NCBI GenBank assembly: GCA_964602655.1
Contig: CAZRSF010000017.1
Span: 24,116-88,115, forward strand
Reading direction: 5' to 3'
Source: an uncultured Candidatus Moduliflexus sp.
GTDB lineage: Bacteria > Moduliflexota > Moduliflexia > Moduliflexales > Moduliflexaceae
DNA length: 64,000 bases
Each line of letters begins with the position of its first letter. Position 1 is the stretch's first letter. Made by a program: the position numbers and the translations under genes. Below the pieces are notes generated by a model, which did no database searches, was not told the origin of the DNA, and saw only the letters and a program-made list of their open reading frames with translations. Positions 5,117 to 64,000 of this stretch are shown piece after piece.

Positions 5117-5398
5117 TTTGGAAAAGAAGGGGAAAACTGAACGCCTCACAGCATTAAACGCGGTCTCCGGCTTCAGGATGGCAGATGTGCCTGTATTACG
5201 GTGCGAATCGTTCATGCGTCGCCGCTGCCGAAACAACGGCTCAACATGCGCGACGCCGCGCCGTTCAAGGCCATACCGTCATCCGGTATCCGCCGGAGCG
5301 CAGGGCGTCAATTCTGTCCGGCGCAGCCGGTTGACCGAAACTTGCCCGGCCTTCCAGCCCGCCGCTGAGACGTTCAGCATCCCCTGGTAAAGGAATTT

Positions 5399-5470
5399 GG
5401 GACAGGGCTCGAACCTGTGAACTGAGCGGTATTAGCGCTCTGCTCTAACCAACTGAGCTACCCATGGTGG
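5399..5470 (-). tRNA. tRNA-like gene, probably degenerate (pseudo-tRNA)
   Basis: The reverse complement reads TAGCTCAGTTGGTTAGAGC (D-arm), GAGCG-CTAATAC-CGCTC (anticodon arm), ACAGG-TTCGAGC-CCTGT (T-arm), CCCA. Only 4 bp of acceptor stem can pair, and the anticodon loop gives the non-standard AAT anticodon. This is consistent with a decayed Met/Ile-type tRNA. Coordinates are accurate to about ±3. Confidence 0.4.
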
Positions 5471-7620: not shown

Positions 7621-8046
7621 ATGGGCAATCACTTATCAGCCACCGTCACGTTAACCAACGATAAAATGCAATTTGCCGCGTCAACCCGCGCCAACCCGAA
7701 AGTGCAGATGGATTATTTCCCGCCGGTCGGCGACGGTGAGGGCTATACCGGATTGGAAATGCTGCTGATGGCTTTTTGCGGATGCAACGCGTCGTCAATC
7801 GTGTTCCTGCTGCGCCGAATGAATAAGACTGTCGCGGGCTTCACCGTCAATGGCAGCGGAGAGCGCCGCGAACAGCACCCGACCTGCTTTCGGACTATCG
7901 CATTAGAATACATCATCACATCGCCGGATATTGAAGAAAGTGATCTGCAACAAGCGATTCGAATGACAGAAGAAACTTACGGTCCGGTCTGGGCGATGCT
8001 GAAAGGCAATGTCGAAATTACGACGACCTTCCGCGTTCAACGTTAA
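7621..8046 (+). CDS. OsmC/Ohr-family peroxiredoxin-like protein
   Basis: The protein is 141 aa with the OsmC signature region (…GEGYTGLEMLLMAFCGCNASSIV…) and the conserved Cys pair. Confidence 0.8.
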   Translation: MGNHLSATVTLTNDKMQFAASTRANPKVQMDYFPPVGDGEGYTGLEMLLMAFCGCNASSIVFLLRRMNKTVAGFTVNGSGERREQHPTCFRTIALEYIITSPDIEESDLQQAIRMTEETYGPVWAMLKGNVEITTTFRVQR

Positions 8047-8215
8047 TCTTTACGCCACGAAAGGCACGAAAAAGAAACCATAAAAATCTTCGTGCCTTTC
8101 GTGTGTTTTGTGGTTTCGAAAGACGAATTTTGTTGCCTTCCCCTTTGACGCATGTTACGCAATCCGCGTTGTTGTCCGAATTCTGATATATCAAACGAAC
8201 TCAAGGAGCGAATAT

Positions 8216-8776
8216 ATGAGATGGAACAGCCTGTTATGTAGTGTGTTGATGGGGGCGGTTGCGCTGTCCGGGTGCGGCAAAAAAGAGACGCCGCAAGAAC
8301 GCGCGGAGAAAGCGATGGAACAATTGAAGAAAATTTCGGCGTGCGAATTGGTGACGAAAGCCGAGATGGAAGCGATTCTCGGTGTAACGCTCGCCGAGCC
8401 GGACGGCAAGGTTCCCGTGACGAGCGCCCCGCCGATGTGCTCTTATACTGCCGCATCAGAAAACCTGAAAGACTTCCTTTCAGTCACTCTGATGGTATTA
8501 CCTTCATCTGACAGCGACCCGAAAAAAACGTATGACACGTTTCTCAATAGCGAAAACGGACTTCTGAAGCAGATCCCGAACGCGAAGATCGAACCGGTGG
8601 ATGGATTTGGTGGTGCTCCTGCGTTTTGGTATGGAGAAATGCATCAATTGTATGTGTTTACGCCTGACATCGTCCTGAGCGTGACCGGAATGTCGCCCCA
8701 GCAGCCGGAGAAAATAACGCTGGAGACACATAAAAAAATTGCGGAAACCGTCTTGCCGCGCCTGCCGAAAAAATAA
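8216..8776 (+). CDS. Lipoprotein, hypothetical
   Basis: The RBS AAGGAG precedes the ATG at 8216. The protein has a signal peptide with the lipobox LSGC. I recognised no domain. Confidence 0.55.
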   Translation: MRWNSLLCSVLMGAVALSGCGKKETPQERAEKAMEQLKKISACELVTKAEMEAILGVTLAEPDGKVPVTSAPPMCSYTAASENLKDFLSVTLMVLPSSDSDPKKTYDTFLNSENGLLKQIPNAKIEPVDGFGGAPAFWYGEMHQLYVFTPDIVLSVTGMSPQQPEKITLETHKKIAETVLPRLPKK

Positions 8777-8820
8777 ATATTCCAGCCGCGAAATATACGA
8801 AAATATATCGTTATTCAAGC

Positions 8821-8849
8821 CCTGACAGGGTGTAAAACCCTGTCAGGGC
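8821..8849. repeat. REP-like palindrome, family 5 (CCTGACAGGGT-GTAAA-ACCCTGTCAGGG); a variant lies at ~46570-46601
   Basis: A perfect inverted repeat sits between convergent genes. Confidence 0.7.
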
Positions 8850-8856
8850 TTGTGGT

Positions 8857-10320
8857 TCATCTCAGCATTTTTTTGAGTTTGAACGTCAGCATGGCGATAA
8901 ACATGATCGCGTAACGCTGGAAATCGGCGAAGGATTTGATATTCTGCACGACGGTCGGGATTTTGCGCAGCAGCGAAAATTTCTTTTTGGCTCCGGCAAA
9001 ATGGAACATCAATTCGCTGATCTGCCACCAGGTCAATTTGTCCATGTAGAGCGGCACATGCCCTTGCGCGGCAGGCAGCAGCACGACGCGATGATCGTTC
9101 GGATTCGTCCACGAAAAATCTTCCGGGATTTTGCCTTCTTGCCGCGCCCGCTGTTCAAGCTCCGTGCCGGGATAGACATGGGCAATCGCGACGCTGATGT
9201 CGCAGCGGTTTTTCACCTGATCAATAATTGCTATCGTTTCCTGCGCCTCTGCCCACGTTTCGGTGGGATGGCTGAACATGAAAAACGGATTCGGTGTCAC
9301 GCCGTATTCCAGCGCCCAATCAATGAATTGGCGCGCCTGCTCCAATGTCGCCACTTTTTTCACAATTTCCTGCGCCACGCGGTGATTACCGGACTCGATG
9401 CCGAACCCGGCGTAAAACATCCCCGCCTGCGCCATTTTTTCCGTCAATTCCTTTGTCATCAAATCCACGCGGACTTCGCAATACCATTTGATGTCGAGTT
9501 TGCGTTCGATGATCAGGTTGCAGATTTCCGCCGCGCGTTTCGGGTTGTAATTGAAGGTGTCGTCATAAAACCAGATCACTTTTGCGCCGTAGCGATCCAT
9601 GACATGTTCGACTTCTTTCAGCACATTCTCCGGCGTCAGGCCGCGCACGCGCCGCCCCCAGTTGTTCGGCGTGGCGCAGAAGGTGCAGTGAAACGGGCAG
9701 CCCCGGCTCGTCATGATATTCGCCGCCGGTTGCAGCCCTTTGCCCGGCACGTCGAGCTTGAAATTGTATCTGTCGTAGGGAATCAAATGGCGGGCAGGCA
9801 TCGGCAGCGTGTTCAAGTCCGGGATGCGCTGGCGCGGGCTATTTTCGATGATCTGGCCGTTTTCGTAGAATGACAGGCCATCCACTTTGCGTAGCGACTC
9901 CCGCGCTTGCAACGCCTGCGCGAGTTCGACAATCGTGACTTCGCCTTCACCGCTGACGACGCCGTCCACGTAAGGCAAATGGCTCAACGTATCGCGCGCC
10001 GTGCCGGTGAAATGCGGGCCGCCCATCACGACAAACGCTTGCGGGCGGGCGCGTTTGGCGACTTGCGCCAAGCGAAAACTCTGAAACCGATTCTCCGTCG
10101 TCGTGGTAATGCCGATGATGTCGGGTTTGTCGGCCTCGAATTTCTTCGCCAACTCGTCCCACGTCAGGCGCAGCACGTCCGCCGGCACGACTTCCACGTC
10201 AATTTTCTGCTGCTCTAATGCCGCCGCGAGATATAACACGCCTAACGACGGCATGGTCGAGCCATGACTCCAACGCTCGGCGAAATAACCGCCGGGCGGC
10301 AGACATAACATCACTTTCAT
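8857..10320 (-). CDS. B12-binding-domain radical SAM protein (class B radical SAM family)
   Basis: The N-terminus is a cobalamin-binding Rossmann-like domain. The radical-SAM cysteine motif SRGCPFHCTFC is present, and a long C-terminal domain follows. Confidence 0.85.
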   Translation of the reverse strand: MKVMLCLPPGGYFAERWSHGSTMPSLGVLYLAAALEQQKIDVEVVPADVLRLTWDELAKKFEADKPDIIGITTTTENRFQSFRLAQVAKRARPQAFVVMGGPHFTGTARDTLSHLPYVDGVVSGEGEVTIVELAQALQARESLRKVDGLSFYENGQIIENSPRQRIPDLNTLPMPARHLIPYDRYNFKLDVPGKGLQPAANIMTSRGCPFHCTFCATPNNWGRRVRGLTPENVLKEVEHVMDRYGAKVIWFYDDTFNYNPKRAAEICNLIIERKLDIKWYCEVRVDLMTKELTEKMAQAGMFYAGFGIESGNHRVAQEIVKKVATLEQARQFIDWALEYGVTPNPFFMFSHPTETWAEAQETIAIIDQVKNRCDISVAIAHVYPGTELEQRARQEGKIPEDFSWTNPNDHRVVLLPAAQGHVPLYMDKLTWWQISELMFHFAGAKKKFSLLRKIPTVVQNIKSFADFQRYAIMFIAMLTFKLKKMLR

Positions 10321-58123: not shown

Positions 58124-58200
58124 AAAGAAAGATTCTCCTCACAACAGAGCGTCTTTTGTCAATTGAAAAATGAGGGATTTCTTTCTCATAACCGTGTCAT

Positions 58201-58380
58201 ATAGGAGAAATGATGGAAGAGCGTTTACCGAATATTCATCCTGACGAAGTATTAGAAGAAGAGTTTTTACAACCGTTGCATATGTCAGCGTCGCGGTTAG
58301 CGCAGGCGATCCGGCTGCCGCAACGCCGATTCGAAAAGCAGCTTACGCGAATTGACCATTTTCAGAGGATGCCCGGCTGA
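58201..58380 (+). pseudogene. HigA-like (XRE-HTH) antitoxin gene remnant, truncated or frameshifted after ~50 aa
   Basis: The translation MEERLPNIHPDEVLEEEFLQPLHMSASRLAQAIRLPQRRFEKQL… matches the HigA N-terminal pattern (IHPGEILxEEFLxPLGLS…LA.ALGV) but ends at 59 aa without the C-terminal helices. No toxin gene is adjacent. Confidence 0.5.
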
Positions 58381-58539
58381 TTTATTTCTCCGCGTCAAGT
58401 CCCCACACGCGCCCATTATACGACACGCGGGCGACCGGCCTGCCGTTTTCGGTCAACTCCCCGCCCGACCAATTCCCGCCGCCGAGGTCGTACTGTTCGA
58501 TATAAGCGCGGCAGGCGGCGCTGATTTCTTTGAATTCGA

Positions 58540-59790
58540 TCACAATTTCTTTATATCTGGAATTCCGGCTCTGCTGTTATGGGAATATAATTTTTGCAGA
58601 AAATCGTTTTTGTATGGATCATCAAAACTACAAATAAAACTTAATACAATTTCTTTTCCTTGAAATAAAAATATATCTTTATACTCCATCTGTTTAGGTG
58701 TTTTAGGATATTTTCTCATTTCATTAAATTTATCTAATTTATCTTTGGGAAGAGATTTGGACAATTTATCTATCACCTCTTCAGAAAGATACTGTTGTAT
58801 AATGATTTTGGATTTAAAAATTGCCACAAAATCAATCAGATTATTTTCTATAGATAACGCTGGGAAAAGATGCCAGGAAGGTTCTTTGAATTCTTTAATG
58901 CTTTTCCTCGCTTCTGATTTTAAGGCTAACTCTTGATTATCGAATTGCTGCAATTCAATAAGTTCAAGATATTTCGTGCTGCCTTGTTCAATGTCGCAAG
59001 CGGGGGTGATGACAATCCCATATTTAAGAATCTTTCCAGTATCGAATCTTACAATATCGCCATTACGAATCATTGTTGCATCTGATTCGTAATAAAGCAT
59101 TTTATTCAGGATGTATCTTCGTTTTTCATCTTTCCCAATGCTCTTAGCAAAATCTCGCGCATTTCGTAAAAGTTGCTTCAAATCACCAGTAAATCTGGTA
59201 TTTTTGACCAACTCTCGATGAATAAGATTTAAGATAAAATCATTACTCCAATCTATATTTTCTTCTTCTCCAATAAGAAATTTGAGGAGAGCAGCAATAT
59301 CCTGATTTGGAAGTTGCATTAAATCGAAAAAAACTTTTTCGATTCCGCCTCTGATGACTTGACGATATACATTGCTGATTTGGGCTGTTAGCGATTGTTG
59401 AAACCATTGAGAAATTTTTTGTTCAAGGATAATTGAAGAGACATTTTCTTTAGAAATTGCAGTAATCAATGCTTTCGGGTAAGAAATTTCATCTCTTAAA
59501 ACGCTTTCATCATAATTTGAAATATGATTTGACCAAATAAAGACGGGAATAAAATATCTGTTTTGCAAATGCTTTAAAACTAAGAGACTCAACAAATGGT
59601 TCTGTTCTTCTAAATACCAGTCTAAAATAACCACATCAAAGTTGATGCCAGAATCAAGAATTGTAATCGCGTCATCTTTTGTTCCACAGCAGTGAAGAGT
59701 AATCTGGTTTTGTTGAAAGTCTTCACGTAATGTTTCTTCAAAATCAAGATAGTCATCATCAATAAGTAGCACTCGCTGTACGTTATTCAT
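58540..59790 (-). CDS. Response regulator: N-terminal REC domain fused to an uncharacterised ~300-aa C-terminal output domain
   Basis: REC hallmarks are present (VLLIDDD…, phospho-acceptor context DVVILDWYL, PVFIWS). GGAG lies 9 nt before the ATG at 59790. The start overlaps the upstream kinase stop (ATGAATAA). Confidence 0.7.
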   Translation of the reverse strand: MNNVQRVLLIDDDYLDFEETLREDFQQNQITLHCCGTKDDAITILDSGINFDVVILDWYLEEQNHLLSLLVLKHLQNRYFIPVFIWSNHISNYDESVLRDEISYPKALITAISKENVSSIILEQKISQWFQQSLTAQISNVYRQVIRGGIEKVFFDLMQLPNQDIAALLKFLIGEEENIDWSNDFILNLIHRELVKNTRFTGDLKQLLRNARDFAKSIGKDEKRRYILNKMLYYESDATMIRNGDIVRFDTGKILKYGIVITPACDIEQGSTKYLELIELQQFDNQELALKSEARKSIKEFKEPSWHLFPALSIENNLIDFVAIFKSKIIIQQYLSEEVIDKLSKSLPKDKLDKFNEMRKYPKTPKQMEYKDIFLFQGKEIVLSFICSFDDPYKNDFLQKLYSHNSRAGIPDIKKL

Positions 59791-61921
59791 TATGATTCTC
59801 CGTAAATGTGATTTTGAACGATGCTCCTTGTAATAAACCGATTTCTGGATAATCATCTTTCGATACAAGGGCAATATCCCAATTCTTCTCCTCTAAAATT
59901 TCTTTAACAATATACAAACCAAGCCCCCGTCCATCCTCAATTTTTGTAGTGAAAAACGGTTCGAAAATTTTATCTTTATACCGCGAAATCACTCCAGAAC
60001 CACTATCCGAGACAAACACAGAAGATGTTTTGGCATCAAGAATAATCCGAATACTACGTTTATCCAGTTCGGATTTACGCGACAACCAGAAAATTGCGTT
60101 ATCAATCAGATTGTTAAAAATCTGCATACAAGAGCCTTCTCGCATTTTTACGATAAAACTTTCTCCCTGCATTTCAATCTGAATAGATTCTTTTTCTAAC
60201 CAACGCTCTTGTAAAGCTATCGTATTTTCAATAATCTTCCGGATCTCTAATTCTTTTTCATTTGCAACCTTTTTAACGTAAAACATTGGACCTAAAAGAC
60301 GAATATCATTTCGTAATGCTTCTAAGGAGCTATAGAGCAAATCGAGTTCTTTTTTGATCTTCGGGGATAATGGATCAAGAAATTTTTTGAGTCTTCCTAA
60401 CGCATCAAGAGCGCCACGCACCAGACGAGCAAATTCATGCGTAAATCGTTCAGCGGCTAAACCTGTCCCTGCAAGACTAAACAATGTCTCTTTTTCCTGT
60501 TTCTGTGATTCAAAAGACTCTTTTACTTCTTCCTCAAATGTTGTGATCTCATTCACAGAATTCTCAAGAATCGCGGCAACTTTGACATTATTTTCTTTGT
60601 GACTTTCTGCAAGCTTATCTGCTAAAGTTGAAAGTTTTGTTTTCGCCTGTTGAAGAGGTTCACTATTATAATCCTGTTTTTTTTCTTTTTTCGGCCTATC
60701 TGCTAAACGCTCGTGCTCTAACACTTGTATTGTAGCAAGAACAAGCTCTCGAAATTGATGAAATGCAAGGTTTTCAATTAATCCTTCACGATTGGTCTTA
60801 TCTTTTAAAAGTTGATTTTCGATCTGGTTGACCTCAATCATGCCAATTATTGTTTTATTGTCAATCTTTCCTGTCGGATCTTGCACTCTTCTTTTATCCA
60901 ATTCAAGCCAATCATCACCTCTCTCTCCGTAAGGAAGAATTCGTATTCCATCCCTATAAATACTCACTCCACACAACTCTTCAATATCTTTTTTAATCAC
61001 CCCTGATTTTTGCAACCATTCAGGAGATTTATCATAATTATGCAAATTAACAATAAAGCTACCACAAATAAGTTCTTCTTGTATTTTGAGGGAATATTCT
61101 TTAATTAGATTAATTTGCCCATTTTTTTGAGTTGGTTTATATCCTGGAACAAAAAAATAATATTCAAACTCAAGTACACCTTGAGTATCTACTATGCCCC
61201 AAAATTTATAATGAGCTTTTTCTAAAATGTCAGAGATTTCAAGGTTTCCATATTTCAGAAATTCTTCTGGACAATCTTCAATTTTCAAAGTGACATCAAA
61301 ATCAGTTGCTCCTTTGAATGGACTTTTCATTCTTTTTAAAGTATTAGCAACACGTTTTATATCAGTCTCAGTCCAATTCGATTTCAAATGAGAAATCTCT
61401 AATAATACTCCTGATTCTTCCTGTTGAAATTCTATTAATGATCTTTCTGCATAACCTATTTCAATATCGTTCAGGTCTTTTCCTTCCACATCAAATTCTT
61501 GCCAGTCAATAGAAACTACTAACTCAATATTAGAATCTTTTACTTTAGAAATCAACGTCAGTGTATTTCCGATCTGTTGAGCTGCAAATCTTCCCACTCC
61601 CTTTTCCCCTAATGGAAGCCTACCCAGTAGTGTTCTTTCTTGTTTGGCTTTTTGCTTTTCTTTATGACCTGAGGCAGGATTCATCCACTTCGTAAGAAAA
61701 GTTTCTGTATCCATCCCACAACCATCATCTCTAATAGTGATCTTTGCGCTAGAAGTATTTAACGCAACCATACTCACCTGAACAGAGGTTGCATCAGCAT
61801 CGTAACTATTTTTAACGAGTTCTACAAGCCCAACAGAAGCGTCCTTGATCAGTTGTTCTCCAAGAATCTGGATTAATCTCGCTTTCGGGGTAAAAGCCTG
61901 TTTGCCTGTTTTCATATTCAT
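59783..61921 (-). CDS. Fusion protein: N-terminal MORC/HATPase_c_3-type GHKL ATPase, central linker, C-terminal histidine kinase (DHp-like H-box + HATPase_c)
   Basis: The N-terminus reads …LVELVKNSYDADAT…ITIRDDGCGMD… (GHKL Bergerat fold). The C-terminus has a candidate H-box (ERFTHEFARLV), an N-box (QIFNNLIDNAIFW), G1 (DSGSGV) and G2 (GRGLGLYIVKE). The start codon directly abuts the HerA stop (TAAATG). Confidence 0.8.
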   Translation of the reverse strand: MNMKTGKQAFTPKARLIQILGEQLIKDASVGLVELVKNSYDADATSVQVSMVALNTSSAKITIRDDGCGMDTETFLTKWMNPASGHKEKQKAKQERTLLGRLPLGEKGVGRFAAQQIGNTLTLISKVKDSNIELVVSIDWQEFDVEGKDLNDIEIGYAERSLIEFQQEESGVLLEISHLKSNWTETDIKRVANTLKRMKSPFKGATDFDVTLKIEDCPEEFLKYGNLEISDILEKAHYKFWGIVDTQGVLEFEYYFFVPGYKPTQKNGQINLIKEYSLKIQEELICGSFIVNLHNYDKSPEWLQKSGVIKKDIEELCGVSIYRDGIRILPYGERGDDWLELDKRRVQDPTGKIDNKTIIGMIEVNQIENQLLKDKTNREGLIENLAFHQFRELVLATIQVLEHERLADRPKKEKKQDYNSEPLQQAKTKLSTLADKLAESHKENNVKVAAILENSVNEITTFEEEVKESFESQKQEKETLFSLAGTGLAAERFTHEFARLVRGALDALGRLKKFLDPLSPKIKKELDLLYSSLEALRNDIRLLGPMFYVKKVANEKELEIRKIIENTIALQERWLEKESIQIEMQGESFIVKMREGSCMQIFNNLIDNAIFWLSRKSELDKRSIRIILDAKTSSVFVSDSGSGVISRYKDKIFEPFFTTKIEDGRGLGLYIVKEILEEKNWDIALVSKDDYPEIGLLQGASFKITFTENHNE

Positions 61922-63571
61922 TTACTCCGTATGTTCACGTTTACTTGAGCAAGGCCGCATACTTGTCATAATCGGATGCTGAAATTGAGGCGAAACAATT
62001 ATACAATTTCCTTGTCCTAAAGTAGGGACTTCATCCCAAACAGATTCATTAACGCTACCAGCCGATGTTTTTAATACTTTGAGGTTATGACTGCCGGTTG
62101 TCTGGTGAATAACTTTAGTATTACACAATTCATAAATTTCATCGGGCAGGTGTGATGGCTGTTGAGAGATAAAACAGAGTCCTAACCAACGTTTTCTTCC
62201 CCGTCGAGCGACTTCACGTAAGCGATCCAGCAGAGCTTCCATTTTGCTGGCATTTTCTCTACTGACAAAGGTATGCGCTTCTTCGATGACAATTAAGGTC
62301 GGCGGTAAATTCTCGTCATGGATTTTTTGATCAAACACCTTTCTTAGAAGATAAGCGATTACAATATTATTAACGCGGACATTATAGGAATTACTTAAAT
62401 CAATTACGCTTACTTTTCCTGGTCTGATTAATGCCGTAGGATCAAGATATTCTTCCGCTAAATCAAAGATGCCAAACCTTTTTAGGCGTTCTAATAATCT
62501 TTTAACAACAAACCATGAAGATTTATCTGCCCCATTTGCTGAATTTATATGATCATTTACAGATTTAACTACATCTTTTAACGTAAGATCAGGGTAATCC
62601 TCATCTTCAAGAAATTCATTCTCTTCGAGAGCTTTCCATTGATTAGAAGATGACTTTTTCTTTTGCGCTTTATCTCCATTACAAATCCGATCTCTCACTT
62701 CATTCCATGCACTAATAAATCGGTCTTCCTGATTTTCATTCATCCCCATAATCGCTGATAATTCATAGGGGGAAAGACTTCCAAATGGAATTCCGAATTC
62801 TATAGCATCTTTTCTTTTTGTCTCTGTTGCCAAAGGAAAATATACCTGAAAGTCATTCAACCCTTTGGCAGTAATTTTAAAACGTTCTGCAATTTTTTGA
62901 AATTCTTTGTTTTTAAGAATTTCTTCAGATGGATAATCCATTGAGATATACTCACCTTCTACATCAAGAACAATTACTGCCCAACCTGCTGAACTTGCCT
63001 CTTCAATAAGTACTTGTGAGGAATTTGTTTTTCCAGACCCAACAGTTCCGAATATTCCTGTATTTCTTGGAAGAACTGATTTTTTATTACCATCGAAATG
63101 AACTCGAATATCGCCATACCCACTAAGTTGGCCGAGATACATGTTTCCTTGCAGACGAAGCAAGTCTTCTATTTTTTCAGGCGGTAATGGAAATATAGCA
63201 GACTTTGGGCGTGGTCTCGTTTGAACGCTTGATAAATTCGCAGAAGTAAGGTTAAAAAGGCCGAGCAGTTCTACAAAACAAATACCATGATAATCTGGCA
63301 AAAATCCAATTTTACCAGCCTGAATAATTGCCGTTTTAGCAAACGCAGATTCACGGCTCACAGCATCAGGCGTATAAAAAGGGCCTTTAACAATCCGTGC
63401 CAAATAAAAATGCTCTTCTTTACTGGATTCAACAATGACATATTTCCCTCTGAAGATTTCCTTAATTTTATCAAAAGGAACTCTGATTTCCACTTCGTTA
63501 TTCGACCCGCCAGGCGCTGAATCAAAATTAACAAATCCAATTGCGTGTTCTTTTGCAAAACCTGTTTCCAT
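61922..63571 (-). CDS. herA: HerA-like FtsK/HerA-superfamily ATPase (HAS-barrel N-domain + ATPase core)
   Basis: Walker A GTVGSGKTN, Walker B LIVIEEAHTF and the HerA-type ISQQPSHLPDEIYELCNTKVIHQ motif are present. AAGGAG lies 8 nt before the ATG at 63571. Confidence 0.8.
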   Translation of the reverse strand: METGFAKEHAIGFVNFDSAPGGSNNEVEIRVPFDKIKEIFRGKYVIVESSKEEHFYLARIVKGPFYTPDAVSRESAFAKTAIIQAGKIGFLPDYHGICFVELLGLFNLTSANLSSVQTRPRPKSAIFPLPPEKIEDLLRLQGNMYLGQLSGYGDIRVHFDGNKKSVLPRNTGIFGTVGSGKTNSSQVLIEEASSAGWAVIVLDVEGEYISMDYPSEEILKNKEFQKIAERFKITAKGLNDFQVYFPLATETKRKDAIEFGIPFGSLSPYELSAIMGMNENQEDRFISAWNEVRDRICNGDKAQKKKSSSNQWKALEENEFLEDEDYPDLTLKDVVKSVNDHINSANGADKSSWFVVKRLLERLKRFGIFDLAEEYLDPTALIRPGKVSVIDLSNSYNVRVNNIVIAYLLRKVFDQKIHDENLPPTLIVIEEAHTFVSRENASKMEALLDRLREVARRGRKRWLGLCFISQQPSHLPDEIYELCNTKVIHQTTGSHNLKVLKTSAGSVNESVWDEVPTLGQGNCIIVSPQFQHPIMTSMRPCSSKREHTE

Positions 63572-63584
63572 AGTTCTTCTCCTT

Positions 63585-64000
63585 CTACTTTTGACGTAAG
63601 GAATCTTCTGGCATTTCGGAAAGAAACTCTCCTTCTTGCGCAAGTTTAAACTCAACAATATTATTAAAATCTGTTGCCTTAAACAAAGTTGAACAGAGGT
63701 TATCCGCATAATCAATTAATAACGGAAATCCTTTTTCTCTTTGAAACATTGCATCTCTGGCAATAATTCTTGCGGCCTGTTCGAAATAATCCTGATGTGC
63801 ATGGAAAACATAAGGACGCTGAGAGATTTTAATGATTCCAATAAGAATTTTAGAAGCTTCTTGCTTTAAAAAGTGAGTCATTCTAAGCAATTCTTCTTCT
63901 CGCCATTTGTCTTTTGCCATAAAATCTTCATTTCTCAATAATTCCATTCCAACATTTGTATGCTTTAATAAAAAATATTCTCCTGAATTTAATGCCATAC
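63585..64000 (-). CDS. Partial CDS (C-terminal ≥138 aa) of an unknown protein immediately upstream of the HerA-like gene; the 5' end lies outside the window
   Basis: The ORF is open to the window edge and ends 13 nt before the HerA start. I could assign no domain from the visible part. Confidence 0.5.
   Translation of the reverse strand, partial: MALNSGEYFLLKHTNVGMELLRNEDFMAKDKWREEELLRMTHFLKQEASKILIGIIKISQRPYVFHAHQDYFEQAARIIARDAMFQREKGFPLLIDYADNLCSTLFKATDFNNIVEFKLAQEGEFLSEMPEDSLRQK

Follow-up and report, generated by a model that had tools for sequence, protein, structure and literature searches.

A soluble histidine-kinase-like protein with two GHKL ATPase modules in a methylase-linked, HerA-containing gene cassette of Candidatus Moduliflexus

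The usual picture of a two-component phosphorelay is almost always that of a membrane sensor with transcription as its output. In a stretch of 64,000 nucleotides from an uncultured Candidatus Moduliflexus sp. (assembly GCA_964602655.1, contig CAZRSF010000017.1, positions 24,116 to 88,115; this whole stretch is called the window below), a gene on the minus strand (59783-61921) had been predicted, from the sequence, to encode a histidine-kinase-like protein with two GHKL ATPase modules and no membrane domain, and probably with an intracellular input such as DNA, a nucleotide or an interaction with HerA. This raises the question of what such a protein responds to and where its signal goes. Our analysis of the 712-aa open reading frame (ORF) characterizes its product as a soluble protein in which an N-terminal paraMORC/Hsp90-like ATPase module is joined to a HisKA-type core of about 230 amino acids (aa), made up of a DHp hairpin and a catalytic ATP-binding (CA) domain, with both modules predicted to be catalytically intact. 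We put at about even the chance that the locus is a methylation-linked defence cassette which was acquired horizontally, is gated by a His-Asp phosphorelay and has this kinase in its signalling core.

Pfam, an AlphaFold model and Foldseek agree that the polypeptide contains two separate Bergerat folds, as had been predicted. The first is a HATPase_c_3 domain at aa 32-150 (61472-61828, on the minus strand like the rest of the cassette), which scores 73.7 bits in Pfam, well above the cutoff of 25 (E 1.9e-20). It carries motif I (E34/N38/D41), motif II (D65-G67-G69) and motif III (G105-E-K-G-V-G110). Over a slightly wider segment, aa 17-197, the protein is similar to the GHKL end of restriction enzymes of the BbrUII/HgiDII type (NCBIfam NF050001, E 2.7e-20); membership of that enzyme type was rejected, since the score is 72.5 bits against a cutoff of 550 and only this segment aligns, to positions 10-185 of a model of 659. 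In Foldseek comparisons with the PDB, the first ~440-490 aa align with the ATPase modules of TRAP1/Hsp90, SMCHD1 and MORC2 (E ~1e-9). The GHKL fold proposed for the MORC-like N-terminus is thus borne out, but the module spans about 400 aa in the model, not the ~130 aa originally assigned to it. Modelled in this way, the N-terminus is a GHKL domain followed by a transducer-like middle region (aa ~200-410; 60692-61324, minus strand), which is delimited by the Foldseek alignments and by a block conserved in alignments of homologues (RDGIRILPYGE..DW...LKDKTNREG).

A helical linker and the DHp hairpin follow (aa 421-549; 60275-60661, minus strand), defined by the helices of the model, a weak HEF_HK match and alignment with the DHp domain of HK853. 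The AlphaFold model, which was built on 55 homologues and has a mean pLDDT of 81.6, places alpha/beta sandwiches at both ends of the protein and forms a long helical hairpin from helices 443-514 and 520-549. The DHp family HEF_HK (PF19191) matches aa 487-546 with an E-value of 0.0076. The candidate phospho-acceptor, earlier proposed to be the histidine in ERFTHEFARLV, is H495 (codon 60437-60439), inside LAGTGLAAERFTHEF. The second Bergerat fold is the C-terminal CA domain (HATPase_c, aa 598-706; 59804-60130, minus strand), which reaches 63.2 bits in Pfam where the cutoff lies at 26.4 (E 3.7e-17) and carries N, G1, F and G2 boxes. The NCBIfam kinase cores of AtoS, PnpS, PhoR and EnvZ match the C-terminus in part, and in Foldseek searches against the PDB the last ~237 aa align with the whole cytoplasmic core (DHp and CA) of HK853, ZraS, CusS and further kinases (E ~5e-11, target TM ~0.6, with the entire target covered). 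The expectation of a complete kinase core with N, G1 and G2 boxes was thereby upheld.

The two GHKL modules have no mutual sequence similarity (BLASTP E 5.2), so a tandem duplication is ruled out and the protein contains independent Bergerat domains. The prediction that there is no membrane or classical sensor domain likewise stands: the highest Kyte-Doolittle value in any 19-residue window is 0.84, and no transmembrane-like segment was found by this measure. Database gene calls begin two codons later, at 61915. The exact 712-aa translation is not on record; a 100% identical version of 710 aa is (P0001).

Are these motifs maintained by selection? In 55 homologues with 52-84% identity, LAGTGLAAERFTHEF is invariant, including H495-E496-F497, as are the N box (N604, D607, N608), the G1 box (D639, G641, G643), the G2 box (G664-R-G-L-G668) and the three N-terminal motifs listed above. 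Our scan of genome contigs had retrieved loci through the peptides AERFTHEF and PLGEKGVGR, and the conservation of both motifs in those loci is therefore partly built in by construction. We accordingly repeated the count on a set gathered independently of these patterns, namely the query and 138 representatives from plain HMMER searches at 27-45% identity (139 sequences). The N-terminal motifs I-III and R378 are 100% conserved in this set; N608 is kept in 138 sequences, and G666 and G668 in 138-139. D639 is present in 129 sequences and replaced by N in nine more, and H495 is found in 121. In MORC/paraMORC ATPases, an S5-fold transducer domain contributes a conserved Lys to the ATP site; in the transducer-like region of the window kinase, K375 is kept within the clade to which the window kinase belongs (described below) and is K or Q in the wider family, where R378 is invariant. 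Judged from these alignments, the two ATP sites appear to be functional throughout the family, as does the phospho-acceptor, and purifying selection acts on both sites and on the H-box down to 27% identity.

The kinase gene belongs to a cassette of about 7.1 kb (58540 to about 65670 in window numbering) with five genes on one strand, in the order C5 cytosine methylase, X358 (a 358-aa orphan), HerA, kinase and receiver-domain (RR-like) protein. The window ends inside this cassette, and the same DNA in a public assembly (locus L001) runs 1,669 bp past the window end; positions convert as window position = 65670 - L001 position. The methylase gene lies two genes upstream, beyond the window (L001 2-1042), and precedes X358. 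Its product matches PF00145 with an E-value of 1e-51 and has the motifs GGPPCQ, ENV and GNAVPP. Both this gene, just past the window edge, and the receiver-domain gene directly downstream of the kinase were overlooked in the original prediction. The methylase and X358 genes overlap, the TAA of HerA immediately precedes the ATG of the kinase, and the start of the receiver protein overlaps the kinase stop by 8 nt. Together with the spacing of the HerA ribosome-binding site, these overlaps and abutting codons indicate a single operon with translational coupling, and its five genes are inherited together.

The receiver-domain protein (416 aa; 58540-59790, minus strand) was recognized by profile match, fold search and alignments. 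Its first 118 aa form a REC domain (59437-59790, minus strand) with the acidic pair D11-D12, the phospho-acceptor D57 (codon 59620-59622, in an invariant LDW) and K114; the acidic pair and K114 are conserved in alignments of homologues. The Pfam evidence is faint: Response_reg_2 (PF19192) reaches 17.8 bits, Response_reg is also below its threshold, and PF19192 matches weakly in 14 of 21 family members (best E 2e-5). A profile of the 21 homologues, however, matches response regulators in the PDB with an E-value of 6e-7 and places D57 on their phospho-acceptor, so the N-terminus is a genuine receiver fold. Beyond it lie a helical region (aa 119-232) and a beta-rich, conserved C-terminal domain seen in alignments of homologues (aa ~233-416; 58543-59094, minus strand), whose invariant residues are G244-D245, C265-D266 (58993-58998), P392 and R407-x-G409-x-P411. 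All 29 RR-like proteins that we compared retain the Cys-Asp motif, even the most distant ones and those encoded on plasmids.

The C-terminal domain had no match in a PDB profile search with this domain alone, and nothing consistent in Pfam or PHROGs; fold searches with the model of the whole protein returned REC matches only. A reading of the GD...CD residues as a PD-(D/E)xK nuclease was ruled out, since no conserved (D/E)xK follows the CD motif. The best database match of the RR-like protein is 59% identical, as against 100, 95, 83 and 67% for the adjacent kinase, and the identical RR-like sequence was not returned from the protein collection although the gene was called on the public assembly. 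Either the receiver protein evolves much faster than the kinase, or the protein collection has a gap.

Upstream of the kinase, the HerA-family hexameric translocase ATPase (549 aa; 61922-63571, minus strand) is identified by Pfam (DUF87, E 2.5e-24; HerA_C, E 1.9e-11), by PADLOC HerA models (E ~1e-26) and by the PDB HerA chains 9x1l, 4d2i, 9c1m and 8ziq. Its ATG at 63571 has the sequence AAGGAG 7 nt upstream. The ORF list gives a form of 597 aa from a TTG at 63715 (61922-63715, minus strand) that would extend 131 nt into X358; the true start is likely that of the 549-aa form, with its strong ribosome-binding site. The functional link to HerA that had been suggested for the kinase is plausible, as HerA lies directly upstream and is translationally coupled, and this linkage is conserved across the whole clade.

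The window contains the 3′ part of the X358 gene (the last 138 codons; 63585-64000, minus strand), and the full gene extends to about 64661 (L001 1009-2085). X358 has no match in Pfam, PADLOC, PHROGs or PDB profiles. Its family comprises 221 clusters, and the 120 homologues listed are all unnamed or "hypothetical" and without a Pfam domain; a tblastn search found no X358 homologues on plasmids. The protein has the motifs VVGIDGT, HGPLLPFE, RPYVFHAH and GFPLLIDYAD. The classical partner of HerA is the nuclease NurA, of which the DGT and GFPLLIDYAD motifs are suggestive. Sequence-level tests were negative: at E<=10, neither a Pfam scan of 16 homologues (PF09376) nor a PDB profile search produced NurA, and PADLOC and PHROGs gave nothing. 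We therefore do not assign X358 to NurA.

Is the fusion itself new? It had been called unusual, a view that did not survive comparison with the literature: HATPase_c_3 + HEF_HK + HATPase_c is the dominant architecture (174 of 222 sequences) in the family for which HEF_HK (PF19191) and Response_reg_2 (PF19192) were defined (Bellieny-Rabelo, Pretorius & Moleleki 2021, Genome Biol Evol, PMC8011034), and the family is abundant. The fusion of HATPase_c_3 with a kinase is thus an already described family. According to the same, purely computational study, transmembrane segments are absent from its kinase-like proteins, and 91.6% of 644 regions show linkage of the kinase-like gene with a receiver-like one. 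The study also reports that the neighbourhood is enriched in C5 methylases, type II restriction-modification (R-M) domains, HNH_2 and Vsr, and that the paraMORC ATPases of Iyer et al. 2008 (PMC2292703) probably gave rise to the family as a branch. The window proteins resemble this family in their soluble arrangement of HATPase_c_3, a DHp domain with H-E-F and HATPase_c, in an adjacent divergent receiver gene without another known domain, and in having a C5 methylase and Vsr in their surroundings or those of relatives. They differ in that they fall below both Pfam thresholds (17.1 against 24.1 bits for HEF_HK, and 17.8 against 27 for Response_reg_2), and in that their clade has HerA and X358 between methylase and kinase and reaches into the archaea.

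Among the candidates that we scored, 3,722 match the kinase at E<=1e-5, and 1,868 representatives at 50% identity score E<=1e-30. Two short peptide patterns matched 268 species genomes from many bacterial phyla and from Woese-, Thaum- and Bathyarchaeota. Family members are carried by 91 plasmid records, 58 of them conjugative; phage homologues of the kinase family are essentially absent, and a phage origin was rejected on this ground. In some members the N-terminus is longer by ~190 aa, which brings them to 870-936 aa, and one of 1,401 aa has the kinase in its C-terminal half; extended architectures were seen in P0185, P0213, P0218, P0247 and P0257 and at loci L049, L069, L072, L073, L076 and L082.

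Although some close kinase homologues carry a precomputed PF19191 match, this model was not detected in 12 distant relatives, ten of them chromosomal (~28-41% identity) and two plasmid-borne (~28-29%), in all of which both HATPase domains are present. At these distant loci the kinase is followed by a tightly coupled ORF of 430-480 aa, the products of which have no Pfam match. They are nevertheless homologous to the RR-like protein of the window, with an hhalign probability of 98.1% and an E-value of 7e-14 over 370 columns that span both the receiver Asp and the CD motif. The existence of PF19191-negative relatives with homologous receiver ORFs thus means that the Pfam models cover only part of the wider family and appear to miss most of it, and that the window proteins belong to the uncovered part. 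A minimal cassette of kinase, RR-like gene and dcm, with or without vsr, occurs in plasmid-borne (conjugative) and other distant relatives. A C5 methylase was detected in 73 of 82 loci, which, like these minimal plasmid cassettes, matches the published gene linkage and R-M enrichment (PMC8011034).

Which part of this family has acquired HerA and X358? We called ORFs in 82 loci, 77 of which came from the genome scan, and ran iterated hidden Markov model searches with the five cassette proteins. X358 is present in 22 of the 77 genome-scan loci, in bacteria and archaea, and in most of them, 18 distinct loci, the complete series of methylase, X358, HerA, kinase and RR-like genes is colinear. A neighbour-joining tree places all kinases linked to HerA/X358 in one clade and none outside it. 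This clade is composed of the group of the window (Bacteroidota, Ignavibacteria and others), a Chloroflexota/Acidobacteriota subclade and an archaeal subclade. The simplest reading of the tree would be a single gain of HerA and X358, with few losses.

The main text of PMC8011034 contains no mention of HerA or a HerA partner. We found no description of the HerA-linked variant in the searchable literature on systems combining HerA, kinase and methylase, on MADS and on paraMORC, where an earlier mention is possible. Within these bounds, three things look new: a monophyletic five-gene variant with HerA and X358 that reaches archaea, the universal Cys-Asp domain, and the gaps in Pfam.

The cassette shares parts with several known systems. 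Like the HisKA-type kinases HK853, EnvZ, ZraS and CusS, the window kinase has a DHp hairpin in which an acidic residue follows the His, and its CA domain bears the N, G1, F and G2 boxes. Unlike them, it has no membrane anchor, PAS, HAMP or GAF domain, a second, unrelated GHKL module of ~400 aa occupies the input position, and its receiver partner lacks a recognizable DNA-binding output. With the prokaryotic MORC/paraMORC ATPases found in R-M systems (Iyer, Abhiman & Aravind 2008, PMC2292703) it shares intact HATPase_c_3 motifs, a transducer-like region and an R-M/defence context; its GHKL module, however, is fused to a histidine-kinase core and not to a nuclease or helicase. Receiver domains and HerA are not mentioned in the main text of that paper. 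In VcSduA, a Shedu protein of the paraMORC3 type, the GHKL ATPase is required for defence and has been proposed to gate the nuclease (PMC12137116).

As in Sir2-HerA, DUF4297-HerA and the archaeal HerA-NurA pair, the HerA gene of the window comes directly after a small partner gene within one operon, but X358 matches none of Sir2, DUF4297 and NurA by sequence, and those systems contain neither a kinase nor a receiver nor a methylase. The methylation-associated defence system MADS comprises several genes, one of them for a HerA-like ATPase, and the window HerA matches the PADLOC model mad8 (E 1.7e-19); only one of the eight MADS components, however, has a counterpart in the cassette. Detocs, a defensive two-component system that Rousset et al. 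reportedly described in 2023, is the precedent for a His-Asp phosphorelay in phage defence. Membership of Detocs or MADS was rejected, as the kinase, the RR-like protein and X358 match no such PADLOC model at E<=0.1, in a release that may lack Detocs models. The only PADLOC matches of the kinase are REase_II and MzaB, through its N-terminal GHKL domain, and the RR-like protein has none.

The surroundings of the cassette are those of an island. The GC content is 35.3% in 58540-64000 as against 51.3% in 1-58123, and the edge of the low-GC cassette (58124-58539, no strand assigned) is marked by a GC jump exactly at the stop codon of the receiver protein. Past the edge lie the tail of a start-less, high-GC ORF on the minus strand (about 58376-58539), which ends in ...IEFKEISAACRAYIEQYDLGGGNWSGGELTENGRPVARVSYNGRVWGLDAEK*, and, on the plus strand, a HigA/XRE-like fragment of 56 aa (58211-58380). 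These remnants suggest that the cassette was inserted next to or into a degraded locus of toxin-antitoxin type. By the ORF list and L001, the cassette of the window contains no restriction gene besides its five genes. In the relatives L004 and L005 the cassette is followed by an HNH_2 endonuclease, Vsr and a SIR2-TPR protein (L004 11317-14264), and in L002 and L003 by an HhH-GPD DNA glycosylase (L002 11343-11942); these neighbours fit a defence-island setting and the repair of 5-methylcytosine deamination. Far from the cassette, ARAGORN predicts a tRNA-Ile at 5395-5466 (minus strand) with the anticodon AAT, which is unusual for a bacterial tRNA-Ile.

How could such a cassette work? In the mechanism that we propose, the methylase would mark host DNA as self. 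The N-terminal GHKL module would take the place of a sensor domain and would dimerize or clamp on DNA in an ATP-dependent manner; alternatively, its target may be the HerA-X358 machine when engaged on unmarked or foreign DNA. The coiled-coil linker would carry the resulting conformational change to the DHp hairpin, where the CA ATPase would phosphorylate H495, and the phosphoryl group would move from H495 to D57 of the receiver protein. The phosphorylated receiver might then release its C-terminal Cys-Asp domain as an effector, or as a licence for HerA-X358, a clade-specific add-on that probably threads and processes the target DNA. The more far-reaching proposal, which we consider less likely than not, is that this constitutes a new R-M-like form of immunity, in which a MORC-like DNA clamp joined to a kinase turns the recognition of unmethylated or foreign DNA into a phosphorelay that licenses a Cys-Asp effector and HerA-X358, and in which, in archaea without a receiver, the phospho-His or the kinase clamp acts on HerA-X358 directly. 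The broader reading of a phosphorelay-gated defence cassette draws its support from the domain anatomy and folds, the conserved ATP sites and H-box, the receiver with its intact acceptor residues, the low-GC island, the R-M and defence neighbours, the similarity of the N-terminus to restriction enzymes, the monophyletic and translationally coupled HerA and X358, and the kinase and RR-like genes as a conserved core; in addition, VcSduA, in which a GHKL ATPase of paraMORC type controls a nuclease, has been shown by experiment to defend against phage (PMC12137116).

Several observations count against this reading. Autophosphorylation and phosphotransfer, like DNA binding and activity against phages, are predictions throughout the family, and the kinase model is of low confidence at aa 477-491, immediately ahead of H495. 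No nuclease or effector fold was identified in the C-terminal domain of the RR-like protein by fold and PDB profile searches, or in X358 by sequence-level searches. Three loci inside the clade (L016, L021 and L024) are without HerA and X358, so this module is dispensable. Conversely, the four archaeal loci with downstream sequence (L027, L029, L032 and L035) combine methylase, X358 and HerA with a kinase that retains the His, and have no RR-like gene detectable at E<=10 within 8 kb (the kinase being at about 8000-10150); they share no downstream gene either, and in a fifth locus of the archaeal clade (L030) the contig ends just after the kinase. From these four loci it follows that the His-Asp step may not be essential in every variant. 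There are accordingly three output arrangements, namely the RR-like protein alone (in most members), the RR-like protein with HerA-X358 (in the window) and HerA-X358 alone (in archaea), which argues that the kinase communicates with both modules, or can work without a dedicated receiver.

The archaeal arrangement also favours an explanation without any phosphorelay, in which the kinase-like C-terminus would be a second ATP-gated dimerization switch, or would phosphorylate HerA or X358, and the whole protein would be a double-clamp regulator of the HerA-X358 motor. The abutting HerA stop codon and kinase ATG, and the regulation of HerA partners by complex formation in known defence systems, point in the same direction. 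Yet H495, the Asp and Lys of the REC domain and the tight overlap of kinase and RR-like genes are conserved both in the window subclade and in the larger family that lacks HerA, and some clade members have lost HerA and X358 and still retain kinase and RR-like protein, and we consider this explanation improbable. We would place at a similarly low level the idea of a two-component system that tunes the adjacent methylase or R-M genes, with the C-terminal domain of the RR-like protein binding DNA or the methylase, and with no part in restriction itself. The authors of PMC8011034 speculate that the signalling controls R-M systems, separate nucleases such as HNH_2 are often found near relatives, and a domain that matches no known family could have a binding role. 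On the other hand, no helix-turn-helix or other DNA-binding family was detected in the 21 RR-like proteins, and the invariant Cys-Asp pair looks, from its conservation, catalytic rather than structural. Moreover, minimal plasmid cassettes consist of kinase, RR-like gene and methylase, with or without Vsr, and have no separate nuclease that could be regulated, and the cassette of the window has no other restriction gene.

The HerA gene, finally, could bring to mind a housekeeping DNA-repair module, in which HerA and a NurA-like nuclease would resect DNA ends under a signalling kinase and no conflict system would be involved. This could draw on the classical pairing of HerA with NurA and on the possible resemblance of X358 motifs to NurA mentioned above. 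Against it stand the lack of a NurA signal for X358 in Pfam (16 members) and in the PDB profile search, the location in a low-GC island with a patchy distribution across phyla and relatives on conjugative plasmids, and a close association with C5 methylase and Vsr genes of the kind known from R-M systems; we regard it as very unlikely.

With a phosphorelay-gated defence cassette as the reading that we prefer, the locus represents a large and phylogenetically broad family that puts a MORC-type ATPase at the input of a kinase and an apparently non-DNA-binding domain at the output of a receiver, in methylase-linked mobile cassettes. If the proposed mechanism is true, it would show that prokaryotic immunity can convert the sensing of DNA state by a GHKL clamp into a thresholded phosphorylation signal, and it would give X358 and the Cys-Asp domain, both of them orphans, a function. 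As the cassette is compact, with five genes, soluble, and mutable at defined residues, these proposals are directly testable.

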